Assembly: GCF_006345805.1 (NCBI RefSeq) | Contig: NC_043006.1 | Coordinates: 23,188,001-23,252,000 of the forward strand | Origin: Octopus sinensis | Lineage: Eukaryota | Length of the DNA stretch: 64,000 bases | Reading direction: 5' to 3' | Part shown: positions 43,552-52,108 of the stretch, one piece after another | How the letters are laid out: every line of letters begins with the position of its first letter | Position numbering within the stretch: the stretch's first letter is position 1 | Translations under genes and position numbers: made by a program | The notes under the pieces: model-generated | Database searches by the model: none | What the model was told of the DNA's origin: nothing | Seen by the model: only the letters and a program-made list of their open reading frames with translations

Positions 43552-45200
43552 AGATAAGAAAATGGAGAAATACATCTAAATCAAATATCAATTACCAGAT
43601 AATACTCAATCACATACTTTATTAAACCACCACATAAGAGACTGTAGGATTAAATATAAAAAGCAGAACAAATCAGTGTACATAAAGGAATGTTCATAAA
43701 AAATGTACATAAAAGAGTAATGTTGTATAATAAGTAGAATATATATAAAAGAGAATATAAATATAAGTATAAATTACATCTTACAGCTGTTTCGGCCATG
43801 TCGATAAGTATGTCTCATTTTACCAATATTAGCCCTTTATGGTTGGTCAATATCTCTTATTATAAAAAGCAGATTTTATCTGCCTCCCTTTGTCAGTTAT
43901 AGAAATCTACAATATAGGATTTCTTCAATTACAATTTACCTAGCATTTTTAAGAGTAGAATGCATCGGGTTTTGCCAGGTCCAGTTTTTAAAATTTAAAC
44001 TCCAATTAAGCAAAATTTACAGAAAACTCACATTCTGGTGTGTATGTCAAATGCTTTTCTTAGTCTGGTTTACAGCACACGTAAACGCACACACAGTGTG
44101 CAACGAATAAAGTGAAACTAGATGTAATATTTGTTTCTGTCTATCACGCTGATAGATACATGAGTAAAATGTATGGCAAGCTAACAGATAAGAGTGAGTG
44201 AAAATGTTCTTGGAAGAGAGTAAATAGCGACAGAGTGATTTGAGGAAGACTAAACTGAAAGTATGAAACAGTGTTTATGTATAAAAAGACGACACATATA
44301 TAAACCCTTTCGTTACCAAACCCCCGAATTTACCTATTCATATTTAAATGAGAATATCAGAGTAAATCTCTTTAGTACATTCGTGAAAACACATATTATA
44401 CTTCGTAAACACTTCAAATACAGTTTTGTACAAAAATCGAAGTGTAATTTTAATTCCGTGAATTATGGGAGATTTTTTCCGAAATTTGTTCCTATTGTGT
44501 TTTCAAAATTTGTAATTCTGACAAAAAATGGATACGAATTTCATTATATCAAGCAGCGAGTCAGAATTCGAAGGATTTTCTACTGAAGACCTTCATAAAT
44601 CTAACTCTATGACTGAAAAAAAAAGCATCTTTATATAAGAGTGAAGTTGTGTGTCTGTCCCCTACGATTTAGATTCGTAACTACTCCCACATTTTGCGGT
44701 GCAGTTTAACCAAAAGCGGGTATCTTATAGTCGTGATTCATATCGAGCCCTTCTGGGTATTAGCGCGCGTCTACGATGAGTCTACGATTTTAAAAAAATT
44801 TACCATCATATTTTTCCATTTTAATGCATTTTTTCGCTTTTATATAAGGGAAGTAACTCTCTAAAAATATCTACGATGTGTCAACGATTTAAAAAAAAAA
44901 TTTACCTTAATTTTTTTTCAATTTTTAATGCATTTTTTGCAATTTTTTGGCTATAACTCTCTAAAAATGCTTATATAGTTATTTCCCTTACAACCCGAGC
45001 AACGCTGGGCGATACTGCTAGTATAGATATAAATGAGACATTTACAAAAATATCACAAGGCCTCTTCAGAGACTGGTAATTGATATTTGATTTAAATGTA
45101 TTTCTCCATTTTACCTTTGCCCATATAATACAGTAAATGAATTGATTGCATCGCAATCATTAACATTTATGTATTAACTTTGTTGGGTACTTCACTAGCA
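43550..45200 (-). mobile_element. PLE-like terminal repeat with a split hammerhead and nested insertions
   Basis: Inverted ends 43560-43598 and 45073-45112; hammerhead halves GTCT CTGAAGA GGCC (45073-45059) and GGCC GAAA CAGCTG TA AGAT (43797-43778). Confidence 0.7.
44628..45021 (+). mobile_element. Non-autonomous Helitron
   Basis: A|TCTTTATATAAG..CCCGAGCAACGCTGGG..CTAG|T; reverse complement of 28818-29213. Confidence 0.88.
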
Positions 45201-45254
45201 GTATATTGGATATATGTTATCCCATAGAGGGTTGCATTTACAACCCCAATCTCA

Positions 45255-45335
<81 letters not shown>

Positions 45336-45346
45336 CATATGTTTAT

Positions 45347-46555
45347 TGTTATATTTCGGAATGGTCATATTGCCAGTTTAGCCAATAAAAACACACGCAC
45401 TATATATGGTGTTATTTTGCTTCAGTGTTATTTATTTTTTACATTAATCTTAATCTTATTTCGGCCAGAGTTCTTTCGTCACACTCCTGTGACCGCATCA
45501 GTGGTCCTTTGTTTTCTTCTTTCTTATTTGTGTCTCTCCTTACTAACCGTCAGCCATTTTGTATTTCTATTGTATGTCTTCATTTGCGCATGCTTATATC
45601 TCTATGTGCGTCTATGTTTATTTAGTGTGTGTATGTGGGGGGATGCCTGTAATATTTGTATCTTCTGTTTATATACGTTCATGTAATTTGTTTTTGTTGT
45701 TGTTGTTTATTCTTATTTTGTTCATGTGTTTTCATCCACTTATTATTATCATTACATATGCTTGTATGTATGTATGTATAACAACAATACTAGTAATAAT
45801 AATAATAAATCGAATCGAAAAAAAAAAAATATATATATGTATATATAGTTATTTATTTCTATTTGTCTATTTATCTGTGTATTTATTATGTTTTCGGGAT
45901 CCTCTATCGTCATAAGTTGTGGTGTGTGCTAGTGCTCCATTCTAGTTTTCTATTCAGGCTAGGTTTATTTTCTATTATGTGTGTAATTGTCTAATTGTTG
46001 CATCTGTTCTATGTGTGGACAATATTTTAATTTCTATGTTATTGATTGATCCCCCGTGTTCCTGTTCGGCGTGTTGGTACAGAATCGATGAGCTTTTACC
46101 TTCCTTGAGTCGTCTCCAATTATTCATTTACTCGCTCTCCTATGCTTCTTGCCGTTTCCCCTATGTATGTCGTTGTCTTGTTACTGCATCATCCCTCTAT
46201 ACATCTTATACTATAGACTACATTTCTGACTTTACAGTTTGTTTGTGGGCTAAATCTACATACAGTACAATACTTATCCGTACAGGGGGTTCTACTAAAA
46301 GGATAGGTTCTACCAATTATAGATTTCATAGGGTTGCCTGGCTGTTCAACAACCTTAATTCTTAGCTTAAGTTTGTCGAAATAAGATTAAGATTAATGTA
46401 AAAAATAAATAACACTGAAGCAAAATAACACCAAATATATAGTGCGTGTGTTTTTATTGGCTAAACTGGCAATATGACCATTCCGAAATATAACAATATC
46501 TGTTTCAACACTCGACTTCACATAAAAAATCTTGCACAACAAATATTTAAACGTA
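45347..46555 (-). mobile_element. 5'-truncated Penelope-like element (GIY-YIG remnant) with inverted terminal segments
   Basis: PFSRTPCTDKYCTVC..NCKVRNVVYSIRC..YIGETARSIGERVNE at ~46120-46365; 45347-45463 is inverted at 46377-46497. Confidence 0.85.
45463..45507 (-). ncRNA. Minimal hammerhead-like motif, variant core
   Basis: CCA CTGATGCG GTCAC-AGGAGT-GTGAC GAAA GAAC TC TGG. Confidence 0.55.
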
Positions 46556-47162
46556 TATATGTTTATATATATATAATATATATATACACATATATTATAT
46601 GATACATGATTTCTTTGCATATATATTGTATATTTAGTATCTTATAATATAATATACATATATATACATACATACATACATACATTTATACATACATACA
46701 TACATACATACATACATACATACATACATACATACATACATACATACATACGTACATACGTACGTACGTACGTATATAGTCACACGAATACGTGTGTTTA
46801 TGTTTATGTGAATGTGCGTGTGCGTGCCTGTATATGTCAAGTGTATATCATGACATTTCTCATTCAGATAGGATAGAAAAGCAGTTTCTGAGGTGAACCG
46901 GAAGCAGCATCAAAAGCTGCAACAATAACAGCACTGACAGCAACAACGTTGTTAACAACAATACAACAGGAAGCAAACAGTTGCCAATTATGCTTTCTAA
47001 TTTTGTCACAAGGCCAGTAATTTTGAGGGGCTGGTGGTTAATCGATATCATCCGTTTCAGTACTTGAATGGTATTTCATTTTGTTATATAGACCCCCCGA
47101 AAGAATTACGACCTCGGCAGCATTTAGAGACAGGATAGAGGGTAAAAGAAAGACCGAGAGAG

Positions 47163-47228
<66 letters not shown>

Positions 47229-47458
47229 TAACATAAGACGTACAGTATGAATGATATACTCTTGACATCGAAGCAGGTAATGATAACTTTCTGAGAAATA
47301 CTCAATTTTTAAAATGAAATTTTGCAGAGATAGAGATTCGATGGAGTAGATTGCAATGACGTTGATAAAATTAAATGTATGTATGTATGTTATATATAAA
47401 AATATACATTCATACATACATACGTACATACATACATACATACATACATACATACATA

Positions 47459-47494
<36 letters not shown>

Positions 47495-47579
47495 AAATTG
47501 GTCATTCCAAGCATCGAGTTTGTAAACGGTGTTATTGAATTGAGGGTATATACATATACATATACATATATATATATAT

Positions 47580-47624
<45 letters not shown>

Positions 47625-47630
<6 letters not shown>

Positions 47631-49138
47631 TAAACAGTAAAATTAATTACAGACATGGACAAGAACATGAAACACCACAGAGACGACACAAGAACCACAG
47701 GACGGGACATTCGAAGCCCTCAGTCATCAGTCAAGAACCAGATCATCTTAGCAATTTCGGCTGATTAATCTTGAGATTGCTCCGATATGGCCAGCCCGCC
47801 AAGGGAAATCTAAGCCAAGCGCATTAGATCCCCTGGAAGAAAGCTCGAATGTATACAACGAAAGGACGGAAAACGATCGAAGTACACAAACAAAAATACA
47901 GAATACGTGACACCAATAAGAATACAAAAACGTAAAAACAATAACGGTAAAAATAAAAAATAAACAACAAAACAAAACCAGGACGTAGGACAAGGGTCTT
48001 TCGACAGGACGATTTGAGTAGGGGCTGGCTTGTGAAGTTGTGCCTAAAGGCCACGGGGAGACGAACAAATACGTGTTGCTTCTGAGGCTGCTGAAAACGA
48101 AAAGAGCGCTCAACAGCGGCTAGCTGTCACGTGAGAACAAAAGACAGGAGAAAGGGACAGATGAAAAGGGAGAGAAGGTGGACGAGGGAGGAGAAGAAAG
48201 AGACAGATCGAGGGGGCTGGAGGTGAGAGAGATAGAGAAACGTAGAAAGGGGGGGGGACGGATGGAGAGGGAAAGAAAGGAGTGGAATAAGGGAGGAGAG
48301 AGAGAGAGAGAAAAAGAGACAGATTAAGAGTCGTATCAAAGCTTGAGAAAAAAATATACTTATCGTATAAGGACAATTGTGGATACGTAGCCGCCGATTA
48401 TATAGGTAAACAGTAAAATTAATTACAGACATGGACAAGAACATGAAACACCACAGAGACGACACAAGAACCACAGGACGGGACATTCGAAGCCCTCAGT
48501 CATCAGTCAAGAACCAGATCATCTTAGCAATTTCGGCTGATTAATCTTGAGATTGCTCCGATATGGCCAGCCCGCCAAGGGAAATCTAAGCCAAGCGCAT
48601 TAGATCCCCTGGAAGAAAGCTTCGAATGTATACAACGAAAGGACGGAAAACGATCGAAGTACACAAACAAAAATACAGAATACGTGACACCAATAAGAAT
48701 ACAAAAACGTAAAAACAATAACGGTAAAAATAAAAAATAAACAACAAAACAAAACCAGGACGTAGGACAAGGGTCTTTCGACAGGACGATTTGAGTAGGG
48801 GCTGGCTTGTGAAGTTGTGCCTAAAGGCCACGGGGAGACGAACAAATACGTGTTGCTTCTGAGGCTGCTGCTGAAAACGAAAAGAGCGCTCAACAGCGGC
48901 TAGCTGTCACGTGAGAACAAAAGACAGGAGAAAGGGACAGATGAAAAGGGAGAGAAGGTGGACGAGGGAGGAGAAGAAAGAGACAGATCGAGGGGGCTGG
49001 AGGTGAGAGAGATAGAGAAACGTAGAAAGGGGGGGGGACGGATGGAGAGGGAAAGAAAGGAGTGGAATAAGGGAGGAGAGAGAGAGAGAGAAAAAGAGAC
49101 AGATTAAGAGTCGTATCAAAGCTTGAGAAAAAAATATA
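47625..49138 (-). repeat. Head-to-tail partial tandem, period 776 bp, PLE/retrozyme-like, in (TA)n
   Basis: GGTAAACAGTAAAATT at 47629 and 48405. The copies differ by two small indels as far as I can see; 48359-48399 is present once. Confidence 0.9.
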
Positions 49139-49349
49139 TATATATATATGTATGTTTATCTGTGTGTGCCTTTGTGTCTGTGTCTGTCGCTCCACCATCG
49201 CTTGACAACCGATGTTAGTGTGTTTATATTCCCGTAACTTACCGGTTCGGCTAAAGATGACGATATAATAAAAACTAAGCTTACAAAGAATAAGTCCTGA
49301 GGTGGTGCTCCAGCATGGACGCAGTCAAATGACTGAAACGTGTAAAAGA

Positions 49350-49390
<41 letters not shown>

Positions 49391-49526
49391 TATTATATAT
49401 ATATTATATATATATATGTATGTATATATATATATATATATAATATATATATATATATACATATATATATGTATGTATATATATTATATATATATATAAT
49501 ATATACATATATGTATATGTATATGT

Positions 49527-49875
49527 ATATACCCTCAATTCAATAACACCGTTTACAAACTCGATGCTTGGAATGACCAATTTTAAATACTATTGGAACT
49601 TACTCACAAGGTACTGGAATCTTATATGTATACCATTCTGCTTAAATAATGAAACTGCAGAAACAATATCCCTGCATATCTCTCGTCTGTTTTCATTTCT
49701 CCACTTCACTTTCTATTTCATTCTTCTCTAGAATAACTATTGTTTAACCATCTTCTCACACCGTCTCCGATGAAGGGATATATAAAATATCCCGGAAACA
49801 GCTGTAAGACCTTCTCTTTATAAATGTCCTGAAATCTTTCACAGCCTTGAATTTTTATCTCATTCTGTTAATTTA
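49527..49875 (+). mobile_element. PLE terminal repeat with hammerhead-like motif; first ~60 bp inverted at 47491-47550
   Basis: GTCT CCGATGA A GGGATA..TATCCC G GAAA CAGCTG TA AGAC at 49763-49810. Confidence 0.7.
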
Positions 49876-50147
49876 TATATATATATATATATATATATAG
49901 GTACATACACACACGCACATGACGGGTGTCTTTCAGTTTCCGTTTACTAAATCCACTCCAAAGCTTTGGTCGCCCCGATGCTTGAGTAGAAGACACTTGC
50001 CCAAGGTACCACGCAGTAGGACTGAACTCGGAACCATGTGGTTAGGATGCAAGCTTCTTACCACACAAGAAAAAGGACAACAAAACCAAGGCAGGACAGA
50101 TATCTCAAGTCATTTAGAATATTTAATTAAGGTAAGGTGAATTTGAA

Positions 50148-50221
50148 GTCTTACAGCTTTTTCTGGGATATCCCAAGTGATAGGCTAACGTCTGTACACT
50201 GGGTATTCCGTCGTCAGAGAC
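50148..50221 (-). ncRNA. Type I hammerhead motif with degenerate stems II and III
   Basis: GTCT CTGACGA CGGAATACCCAGTG..CACTTGGGATATCCCA GAAA AAGCTG TA AGAC. Confidence 0.6.
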
Positions 50222-51571
50222 AAGGCGAGTATGTATGAAAGATCTAGACAGGGAAATTCACAGTTTATAAGGAATAAAATAGTAGATAGATGAATAAAGA
50301 GTAAAACAGTAGATAGAAAAATACAGACAGGAGAATAAAGTTCACAGCTCATCTTCTTCCAGAACGTATGGAGGTTGGTCCGTACTTCCGTGAAGGTATA
50401 GGACCTTAGGTGTAATCTCAGGTAAATCCAGGCTGTATTTTAACAGTATTTTGAATGTTGCGTTCATGTTGAAGGAATATAATTAAGTGGTTAGCTAATA
50501 TGAAAATGGTCCACGAAGGTATATAGAGTGAGAAAGACAGACATCATGATAGATAGATAGATATGGGTTGTGAATGAGTGACTAGAAGAAAGATGAGAAA
50601 GAGAGAAAAAAGAAAGGAATGGGATAGGTGTAGGAAAGAATGAATGAGAGTGAAAGTAAAATAAAAAATAAAGATAAAGATACGATGTTAGTATTTTTCT
50701 TCGTAAGGGTCGTTTCGAGGTGAGAGGTCAGGCGTTATGGTTTTGGTAAAGTGGAGGAGGAAGGCATTTATGCTTATTAAATAAATAGATGAATTCTAGG
50801 TTCGGTGTAGTGAGAAAGAAAATTTAGTTCAGTGGTCAGCAGGGATAGTTAAAAAATAGATACCTAGCTTAAGGGAGTATATATAGGATCAAGATACGAT
50901 TAAATGGATAAAGGATTAAAAATTAAAGAATTAAAAATTAAAGAATTAAAAATTAAAAAGGTTTTATATTAAAAATTAAAATTAAAAATATAAAATCTTA
51001 AAAAGATTATTGCAGCGAGTTATCTTCTATGATATTTATGTTGATAGAAAAGAAAAGAAAAAATAACGACTGTGGATGCATATAGGCAAGTCACATGCAT
51101 TTGGACCTATGGAAGAATCTAAAGGTGCGATAGAATTTATGTTTACATGTAGAGAAAGCTTCGTGTTGCTTATTGAGTAATTGTGGTGAATTATAAATTA
51201 ATATTTGGAGGGCTTCTTTCTGGCAGAATCCACACGTAGAACGTAGGACTCCAGAATCTATTATGGTATTTTTTATCTATCAGATGGTGTATGTGGTTGG
51301 CTAGGGACGTGAATTTGCTATGCCCCTCATTTAAATGGGTTTGGATGTGCAAAATATCTTTGTTTAATATTGATAGTAGATCTGATGTAATAGCTAGTAG
51401 AATTGTGTGATATGTTGTGGACAATGCATTTATATACCACGTTAAACCTTCTGTTATGGGCTTGCAGCAGGCATTCGTTCCCAGACCGACAGTTGCAGCT
51501 ATCTCTCTTACGTGGGCTAGTTGTGGAAAGGGATGATGCTGTACTATTTATGTATAATTTTTTGACTATGG

Positions 51572-52108
51572 GTAGATTGCAATGACGTTAATAAAATTAA
51601 ATGTATGTATGTTATATATAAAAATATACATTCATACATACATACGTACATACATACATATATGTTCATTTACCCGCTCTCCTATGCTTCTTGCCGTTTC
51701 CCCTACGTATGTCGTTGTCTTGTTACTGCATCGTCCCTCTATACATCTTATACTATAGACTACATTTCTGGCTTTACAGTTTGTTTGTGGGCTAAATCTA
51801 CATACAGTACAGTACTTATCCGTACAGGGGGTTCTACTAAAAGGATAGGTTCTACCAATTATAGATTTGATAGGGTTGCCTGGCTTTTCAACAACCTTAA
51901 TTCTTAGCGTAAGACCCGCAGAAGAGAGCATCGACGGATGGATGAATGCGCATCCAGGCTCAGCTGTTGCGTAGGAAGTCGGGGACAAGAAACAGGAAGA
52001 AAGAGTGAGAGAAAGTTGGAGCGAAAGAGTACAACAGAGTACAAGAGTAAACGAGAGGAAGGTGAACTCTTACATGTAAACTAAATTCATTGCTTTACTC
52101 ATTGCCGA
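51572..52108 (+). other. Composite templated insertion built from three local sources
   Basis: 51572-51660 ~ 47346-47440; 51665-51908 ~ 46123-46366; 51908-52108 ~ 55097-55323. Confidence 0.85.

Follow-up and report, generated by a model that had tools for sequence, protein, structure and literature searches.

A non-coding tandem repeat of Octopus sinensis carrying a predicted hammerhead ribozyme opened within its catalytic core

The repeat unit and its copies

The window analysed here is a stretch of 64,000 nucleotides from the genome of Octopus sinensis (RefSeq assembly GCF_006345805.1, contig NC_043006.1, positions 23,188,001 to 23,252,000 of the forward strand), and positions are those of the window unless a chromosome-scale prefix is given. 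It contains two head-to-tail units of a non-coding repeat, a putative retrozyme, whose minus strand carries hammerhead-like letters at 47781-47720 and an identical second copy at +776; a sequence-only reading of this DNA had described these letters, their strand and the copy 776 nt away, all of which we confirm. The predicted ribozyme extends upstream to 47796, and its chain would be opened inside the core, between A9 and G10.1 (hence split-core hammerhead). The units and the two motif copies are as follows.

47623..48398, minus strand: unit 1 of the putative retrozyme, full length (776 nt), with 44% GC and without known coding role; its fixed 3' end lies at about 47629, beside (TA)n
48399..49138, minus strand: unit 2, head-to-tail with unit 1, 5'-truncated at unit position 41; adjoins (TA)n
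47724..47796, minus strand: predicted split-core hammerhead copy 1, from G10.1 to A9, 73 nt
48500..48572, minus strand: predicted split-core hammerhead copy 2, identical to copy 1

The two units differ by indels of 1 nt and 3 nt, both outside the motif. A 181-nt query recovered 1314 candidates in the genome, and the 40 that were scored were all identical to the query; exact 25-letter patterns recovered 1132 copies of a second subfamily and 2546 copies of others, and a further pattern matched 453 copies of subfamilies D and E, which partly overlap the 2546. A shared 3' end base followed by (TA)n was found in 29 of 30 loci of the window subfamily, the remaining one being cut by the locus edge; the 5' ends are scattered, and arrays include more than four head-to-tail units. 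In subfamilies B and C the distance from the motif to the 3' end is about 130-150 nt, and most of these ends lie in (TA)n. Unit length is about 760-880 nt in subfamilies A and B, and the longest stop-free frame in the unit spans 123 codons. From the fixed 3' end and the ragged 5' ends it follows that the minus strand corresponds to the RNA and is the ribozyme strand. Fixed 3' end, ragged 5' end, partial tandems and a microsatellite target are the insertion traits of Penelope-like elements (PLEs; Craig et al. 2021, PMC8557442), and all of them are seen here. The unit also shares with retrozymes lacking long terminal repeats (non-LTR retrozymes) the non-coding head-to-tail organization with one hammerhead each; it has no type I hammerhead. 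Among the 35 of 44 extracted units that were kept, divergence was 0.3% between units of one array (11 pairs) and 1.5% between units of different loci (584 pairs). The low divergence within arrays fits repeated copying of one template, and it fits recent local duplication as well.

No autonomous partner open reading frame (ORF) was attached to the unit among the matches listed in 91 loci, and blastn of the unit against the motif regions of Naiad PLEs or of the unrelated families F1-F3 described below (50 loci) gave no match, other PLE families not having been surveyed. A pattern scan of metagenomes returned 0 matches. Part of the unit was found in 20 of 21 listed sequencing runs, under four organism labels and always as contigs. 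When eight of these runs were mapped, depth peaked over the motif and the relatives ceased to match at 47797 and 47727, which are the motif borders. Two runs contained template-switch adapter letters, and the contigs lack ends and strand, so the run data are not counted here as evidence of expression.

The predicted fold and the upstream partner of stem II

Conservation was assessed in an alignment of 40 copies (39 distinct rows) spanning subfamilies A-E, selected by leaving out truncated, duplicated and most strongly rearranged loci. The predicted strands of copy 1 are listed in the 5' to 3' order of the RNA.

47791..47796, minus strand: stem II 5' strand GGCUGG (G10.1 = 47796); 94% of cells paired in 39 distinct rows
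47784..47790, minus strand: 5' strand of the bridging helix P0 (the 'I' helix of Eckert et al.); one U.C mismatch in the window copy
47781..47783, minus strand: GGA, short strand of the kink-turn-like loop between P0 and stem III
47776..47780, minus strand: stem III 3' strand GCAAU; in subfamily B a C-G pair is replaced by U-A (7 rows)
47775, minus strand: C17 of the AUC triplet; predicted cut between 47775 and 47774
47769..47774, minus strand: stem I 3' strand UCAAGA; 98% of cells paired
47765..47768, minus strand: linker of 4 nt between stem I and stem II; in type SGC its usual length is 3 nt
47756..47764, minus strand: stem II 3' strand UCAGCC and G12-A13-A14; near invariant in all subfamilies
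47738..47755, minus strand: stem III 5' strand, long strand of the internal loop, P0 3' strand
47724..47736, minus strand: stem I 5' strand UCUUGA and core CUGAUGA (A9 = 47724)

The first half of the RNA would thus run from a stem II strand through helix P0, the kinked loop and a stem III strand to the cut site and a stem I strand; the second half would follow with the 4-nt linker, the other stem II strand, GAAA, the other strands of stem III, P0 and stem I, and CUGAUGA. P0, a helix of 7 bp, begins directly behind the upstream stem II strand; its other side is formed by the bases that immediately precede the stem I strand. Together P0 and stem III would close a 20-nt loop into which both flanks would pair, giving a double pseudoknot; because the loop takes pairing from both flanks, one copy should suffice. 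Stem I (6 bp), stem III (5-6 bp), CUGAUGA, GAAA and the AUC triplet with C17 at 47775 are all present, as had been claimed. Core position N7 is U, A or G depending on the subfamily, and the hammerhead core (CUGANGA, GAAA, UH triplet) is intact in 36 of the 40 aligned copies. A descriptor of the corrected fold matched both window copies, with 0 matches in 200 dinucleotide shuffles of the window; an Rfam scan of 44000-52000 returned no hammerhead, only microsatellite-driven microRNA matches. Nested minimum free energy folds were tried as a structural test and set aside as uninformative for a double pseudoknot.

The sequence-only reading had taken CTGA/TCAG as stem II and had named two extra Cs and a missing G10.1-C11.1 pair as its weaknesses. 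The complementarity exists in this copy, but the helix is broken in whole subfamilies. Since the conserved partner lies upstream, where GGCUGG supplies the usual G10.1-C11.1 pair directly before GAAA, both weaknesses vanish, and the topology becomes more unusual than had been proposed. Across the 39 distinct rows the upstream helix GGCUGG/UCAGCC is paired in 94.4% of cells; the CUGA/UCAG helix reaches 85.9%, with its two middle pairs unpaired in 8 and 11 rows, and a downstream GGCU register reaches 86.5%, with the core-closing pair unpaired in 12 of 39 rows. In subfamilies D and E the letters behind CUGANGA have changed so that neither downstream option pairs, and UCAGCC itself is almost invariant. 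The predicted duplex energies are -10.0 kcal/mol for the upstream stem II, -3.9 kcal/mol for CUGA/UCAG and -6.4 kcal/mol for the downstream GGCU helix.

These figures bear on the possibility that the motif is an ordinary type-SGC hammerhead, with its stem II strand 3' of CUGANGA either as CUGA/UCAG with two bulged Cs or as GGCU/AGCC after a 5-nt insert. Both downstream helices can form in the window copy, two subfamily D loci show a two-sided change on the CUGA/UCAG helix, a downstream helix could form after cleavage, and the type-SGC RNA HRIMA-1 carries a 1-nt insert at the same place (PMC10085705). We nevertheless consider this very unlikely, as the downstream helix is 3.6 to 6 kcal/mol weaker than the upstream one and is broken in subfamilies D and E, with 11 and 12 of the 39 rows unpaired at the key pairs. 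A search for an ancestral form with CUGANGA followed by GG gave 25 matches against 5 in controls, and only 2 of the 25 belong to the window family. Two other candidates were dropped: type I, II or III folds spanning tandem units, which leave the CUGA/UCAG stem II unmended, and a fourth, downstream helix (GGAUG with CRUCC), in which changes of the linker are uncompensated.

The remaining helices of the predicted fold are paired in 97% (stem III), 98% (stem I) and 85.6% (P0) of cells, the last score being lowered by subfamily B rows that are one column out of register in P0. Stem III and P0 show one two-sided change each (14 cells, a value reached by 0 of 500 shuffles); of the helices whose covariation the sequence-only reading had proposed to examine, stem III has such a change, and the stem II drawn there is not the conserved one. 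Conservation relative to the flanks was likewise observed: the motif is 76-91% identical between the window unit and 10 copies of other subfamilies, against mostly 50-80% elsewhere, and is the best-conserved bin in 9 of these 10 comparisons.

The order of elements, namely stem II 5' strand, S, G, and stem I 5' strand with CUGANGA, is none of the orders CGS, GSC and SCG of hammerhead types I, II and III, and to this extent the earlier claim stands; the S-G-C order as it was then drawn is not novel, having been published as type SGC (PMC10085705). The short linker between stems I and II and a helix joining the other strands of these stems, both traits of type SGC, are present here, and a stem II strand within 0-2 nt after CUGANGA (block C intact) is absent. 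Also upheld, for a predicted fold, are the non-circular strand order in a tandem retroelement, the cut position after C47775 and the minus strand as RNA.

It had also been suggested that the ribozyme is completed between adjacent tandem units. In its general form this view holds that the same helices form between two copies, with tandem units or two RNAs swapping strands as in the dimeric hammerheads of PLEs and newts. The tandem arrangement agrees with it, as do the short palindromes inside the motif (GAUUAAUC, GAUC, CCGG), the distance that P0 would have to bridge and the loop of subfamily B. A kink-turn has a bulge of 3 nt and, behind it, tandem G.A and A.G pairs; judged by this consensus, a kink-turn-like GA/GA pattern occurs in 32 of the 40 rows and in the Octopus Naiads, is missing from subfamily B and is unclear in F1/F2. 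A second copy is not required, however, since all strands of the fold lie within 73 nt, and the joint between P0 and stem III is an internal loop or bulge throughout, which could bend. In addition, type-SGC and type-CSG RNAs cut in vitro as single constructs (PMC10085705), and strand exchange between copies appears distinctly unlikely.

Unrelated families, Naiads and insertion junctions

A pattern of core letters and spacing that excluded the first stem I pair of the window family gave 314 genomic matches, compared with 3 for its reversed control. Thirty loci were fetched; 27 belong to families F1/F2, one each to F3 and F4, and one is an apparent chance match. A complementary upstream stem II strand is found in 24 of the 27 F1/F2 loci, the other 3 being truncated there. 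The stem II pairs are GAAGG/CCUUC in F1, GAAGGC/GCCUUC in F2, GGCCCA/UGGGCC in F3 and GACACC/GGUGUC in F4; F3 and F4 each have their own P0 behind the stem II strand, and in these families and the Naiads seen the joint of P0 and stem III is always an internal loop or bulge. A strict descriptor was passed by 19 copies in the 30 loci. In F3 the stem II strand is repeated 5 nt after the core, which would favour the downstream helix of type SGC; that downstream partner is absent in F4 and the Naiads seen, where the upstream strand is perfect.

In F3 (locus L154, C1:78074184-78074241; 6 of the first 100 matches of the family-excluding pattern), an ORF with a match to zf-RVT (E 8.9e-7) precedes the motif by about 60 nt, and the element ends in (TG)n. 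The same ORF contains what we take to be a restriction-like endonuclease motif. Because an ORF with these two features lies ahead of the motif, F3 appears to sit in a non-PLE retrotransposon. F1/F2 (loci L146-L175) form a sequence-unrelated retrozyme family with the triplet GUU or GUC; it numbers several hundred copies, some of them in tandem. Here the stem II strand could also pair with G8-A9 and the bases that follow, possibly as an off state. Single matches at C3:113033905 and C5:15551157 have the core, the spacing and a K-turn-like pattern with different stems, and are possibly further old families. Another repeat family (L031, L036-L038, L044, L048, L051, L054), with CUGAUGA, a short stem and GAAA, probably represents ordinary PLE type I hammerheads.

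F4 corresponds to the 3' end of two published Naiad consensus sequences, Naiad_Obim and Naiad_Ovul. Naiads are PLEs that encode a GIY-YIG endonuclease and a reverse transcriptase (RT), and show 5' truncation, partial tandems and (TA)n targeting; they are said to lack canonical hammerheads, with cases flagged as 'HHR_core' and 'HHR_half_core' (Craig et al. 2021, PMC8557442). F4 has 1823 candidates in this genome, the 40 that were scored showing 83-90% identity apart from the self-match, and RT C-terminal frames were found upstream of the motif in 3 of 20 loci. The Naiad supplement was read by eye at 60 of 62 ctgatga, 30 of 87 ccgaaa and 30 of 93 tcgaaa sites, the last yielding no new motif. A split-core fold was recognized in 10 of 54 Naiad consensus 3' untranslated regions (UTRs) from five phyla: Bfor (with a stem I of just 2 bp), one Clytia, Amil, Aacu (two mismatches), Anas, one Morbakka, Plae, Naiad-4_Dst, Obim and Ovul. 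Read in the same way, five 3' UTRs from nematode Naiads (Nbra-3, Hcon and three more) are clean type CSG, one of them with an extra U after A9 as in HRIMA-1; the Clytia, Morbakka and three further nematode entries were named by their position in the supplement. At further CTGATGA sites of the supplement the fold did not fit. So far type CSG has been reported from two metagenome sequences (Eckert et al. 2023, PMC10085705).

Insertion junctions were counted genome-wide as minus-strand TATATA near a motif anchor, one per locus. There were 109 at offsets -33..-3 from the predicted cut, 767 at -20..+10 and 224 at +11..+37, which corresponds per base to about 3.5 upstream, about 54 in -2..+10 after subtraction of the upstream rate, and about 8 downstream. 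At the predicted cut and immediately behind it, 5' junctions thus become about 15 times as frequent. Direct joining of TATATA at the cut was found in 93 copies (41 + 52) on both strands, with about 14 expected for two offsets on two strands. An exact start at the cut was seen in 4 of 60 loci of other subfamilies; in 23 of 27 distinct listed loci of the -20..+10 pattern the junction lies at 0..+10, and in F1 17 of 22 listed junctions lie at -1..+9. We regard this step as indirect evidence of cleavage in vivo, drawn from genomic sequence.

The same peak could be attributed to RT stalling and TA microhomology, if the motif were a conserved structured signal, such as an RT binding or stop site, or the relic of a dead ribozyme without cutting. 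The position of the peak at +5..+10 would suit this, as would two findings on related elements: no cleavage was seen in vitro for 8 of 9 Xenopus retrozymes (Li et al., 10.64898/2026.07.22.740005), and Poseidon insertion in vitro needs no cleavage (Frangieh 2024). For an RT arriving from the 3' side, the expected place to stall is the 3' border of the fold, at about +50, but the junctions pile up at the cut; they drop sharply upstream of it though TA microhomologies exist there too, and the unrelated family F1 shows the same step. The core is also intact in 36 of 40 copies, and a signal or relic that does not cut seems very unlikely.

The immediate surroundings of the repeat hold two other features. 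A 91-nt inverted repeat (99%) at 47489-47579 and 49499-49589 flanks the putative retrozyme and looks like an inverted partial copy of a neighbouring element, with the retrozyme inserted between its arms. On the plus strand at 49763-49810, 630 nt from the retrozyme, there is a PLE-type minimal type I hammerhead with CCGAUGA, a 7-bp stem II, a palindromic stem III and a GUA triplet, and the repeat that carries it ends about 60 nt later in (TA)n.

Proposed mechanism and comparison with known systems

We propose, with a probability of about 0.8, that the repeat is a non-coding tandem retrozyme, likely moved by a PLE, whose RNA would adopt a hammerhead fold with the chain open between A9 and G10.1 and would cut itself after C47775. 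One cut per unit would turn read-through transcripts into linear monomers, and some of these would be ligated into circles, by analogy with other retrozymes. Priming by the reverse transcriptase of a PLE would take place where (TA)n is nicked, always at one position about 150 nt behind the cut; internal priming by a PLE RT has been demonstrated (Frangieh 2024) and matches the fixed 3' end of the unit. Running off the cut end of linear RNA, the RT would leave short copies, and continuing round circular RNA it would produce tandem ones.

Several observations weigh against this proposal. At the junctions, most ends lie at +5..+10, where TTAA offers microhomology to (TA)n, and not at 0, and the three junction patterns use anchors of different length. 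Within the window family stem II has no two-sided change, its covariation evidence coming solely from the by-eye comparison of unrelated families; measures of pair count and pair type are not above shuffles (419 and 481 of 500), 21 of 39 rows have a mismatch at one P0 pair, and the change in the D loci L116 and L118 improves the downstream CUGA helix and breaks one upstream pair. In subfamily A the descriptor allows a second upstream register (47816-47813), mostly missing in other subfamilies. Nested folding gives P0 and stem III pair probabilities of just 0.01-0.16, longer windows give a different minimum, and the nested-fold z-scores are unremarkable. With 83-90% identity the Naiad copies in this genome are old, and they share no sequence with the unit, so they do not point to the mobilising enzyme. 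For Poseidon, no RNA-seq ends were found at the hammerhead cut site and cleavage was dispensable in vitro (Frangieh 2024).

If the ends of a type-SGC hammerhead were joined and the resulting ring opened again between A9 and G10.1, the predicted ribozyme would result. A hammerhead consists of blocks C, G and S in the description of Eckert et al. 2023 (PMC10085705), who list six orders; as these blocks were assumed to be uninterruptible, the split-core order is not among them. We find it likely that the split-core fold is a seventh natural hammerhead architecture, opened in the catalytic core and cutting in cis, and that it is the overlooked ribozyme of Naiads (from at least five phyla), of their retrozyme parasites and of one non-PLE family. 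In the same joint interpretation, held with equal confidence, SGC, CSG and split-core would be openings of one closed ring, and in a circular unit the whole element would be an insertion in the core, cleavage setting the 5' ends of new copies.

If so, hammerhead topology would extend beyond the six orders thought possible, and animal genomes, from which Eckert et al. reported no non-circular permutations, would be found to contain them. The view that Naiads spread without a ribozyme, which has been used to argue that hammerheads may be mere passengers of PLEs, would need correction. The junction pile-up makes the in vivo role of PLE hammerheads testable from genomes alone, and a core that tolerates an open A9/G10.1 joint would offer ribozyme design a new insertion place for cargo or aptamers. 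No description of the split-core fold was found in the literature on hammerhead permutations, G10.1 insertions, kink-turns, octopus Penelope elements, retrozymes and Naiads, a search with most subscription journals outside its scope.

Among known systems, PLE pseudo-long-terminal repeats share the retroelement context. Their minimal dimeric type I hammerheads, reportedly described by Lunse et al. in 2017, are said to have a palindromic stem III that needs a dimer, whereas the split-core stem III is a normal 5-6 bp helix. Like metazoan non-LTR retrozymes, for some of which circular RNA has been demonstrated (PMC7229834; Li et al., 10.64898/2026.07.22.740005), the unit is non-coding, head-to-tail and low in GC, with one hammerhead per unit, thousands of copies and proposed movement by PLEs; unlike it, those retrozymes carry type I hammerheads and were found with type I descriptors. 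With Naiads it shares 5' truncation, partial tandems, (TA)n targeting and the split-core fold recognized in 10 of their 3' UTRs, but it has neither GIY-YIG endonuclease nor RT and no homology to the Naiad 3' ends of this genome. The closest resemblance in the ribozyme itself is to types SGC and CSG (HRIMA-1 and variants), in the cyclic S, G, C order, the short linker between stems I and II, an extra helix, multiple pseudoknots and a full core. Type-SGC RNAs come from metatranscriptomes only and none from genomes of known organisms (PMC10085705), whereas the split-core hammerhead belongs to a high-copy animal repeat and its chain is opened between A9 and G10.1, so that block C is split. The motif is thus best described as a predicted hammerhead-class variant in a putative new retrozyme family, in which the S-G-C order was already known and the opening of the core would be new.
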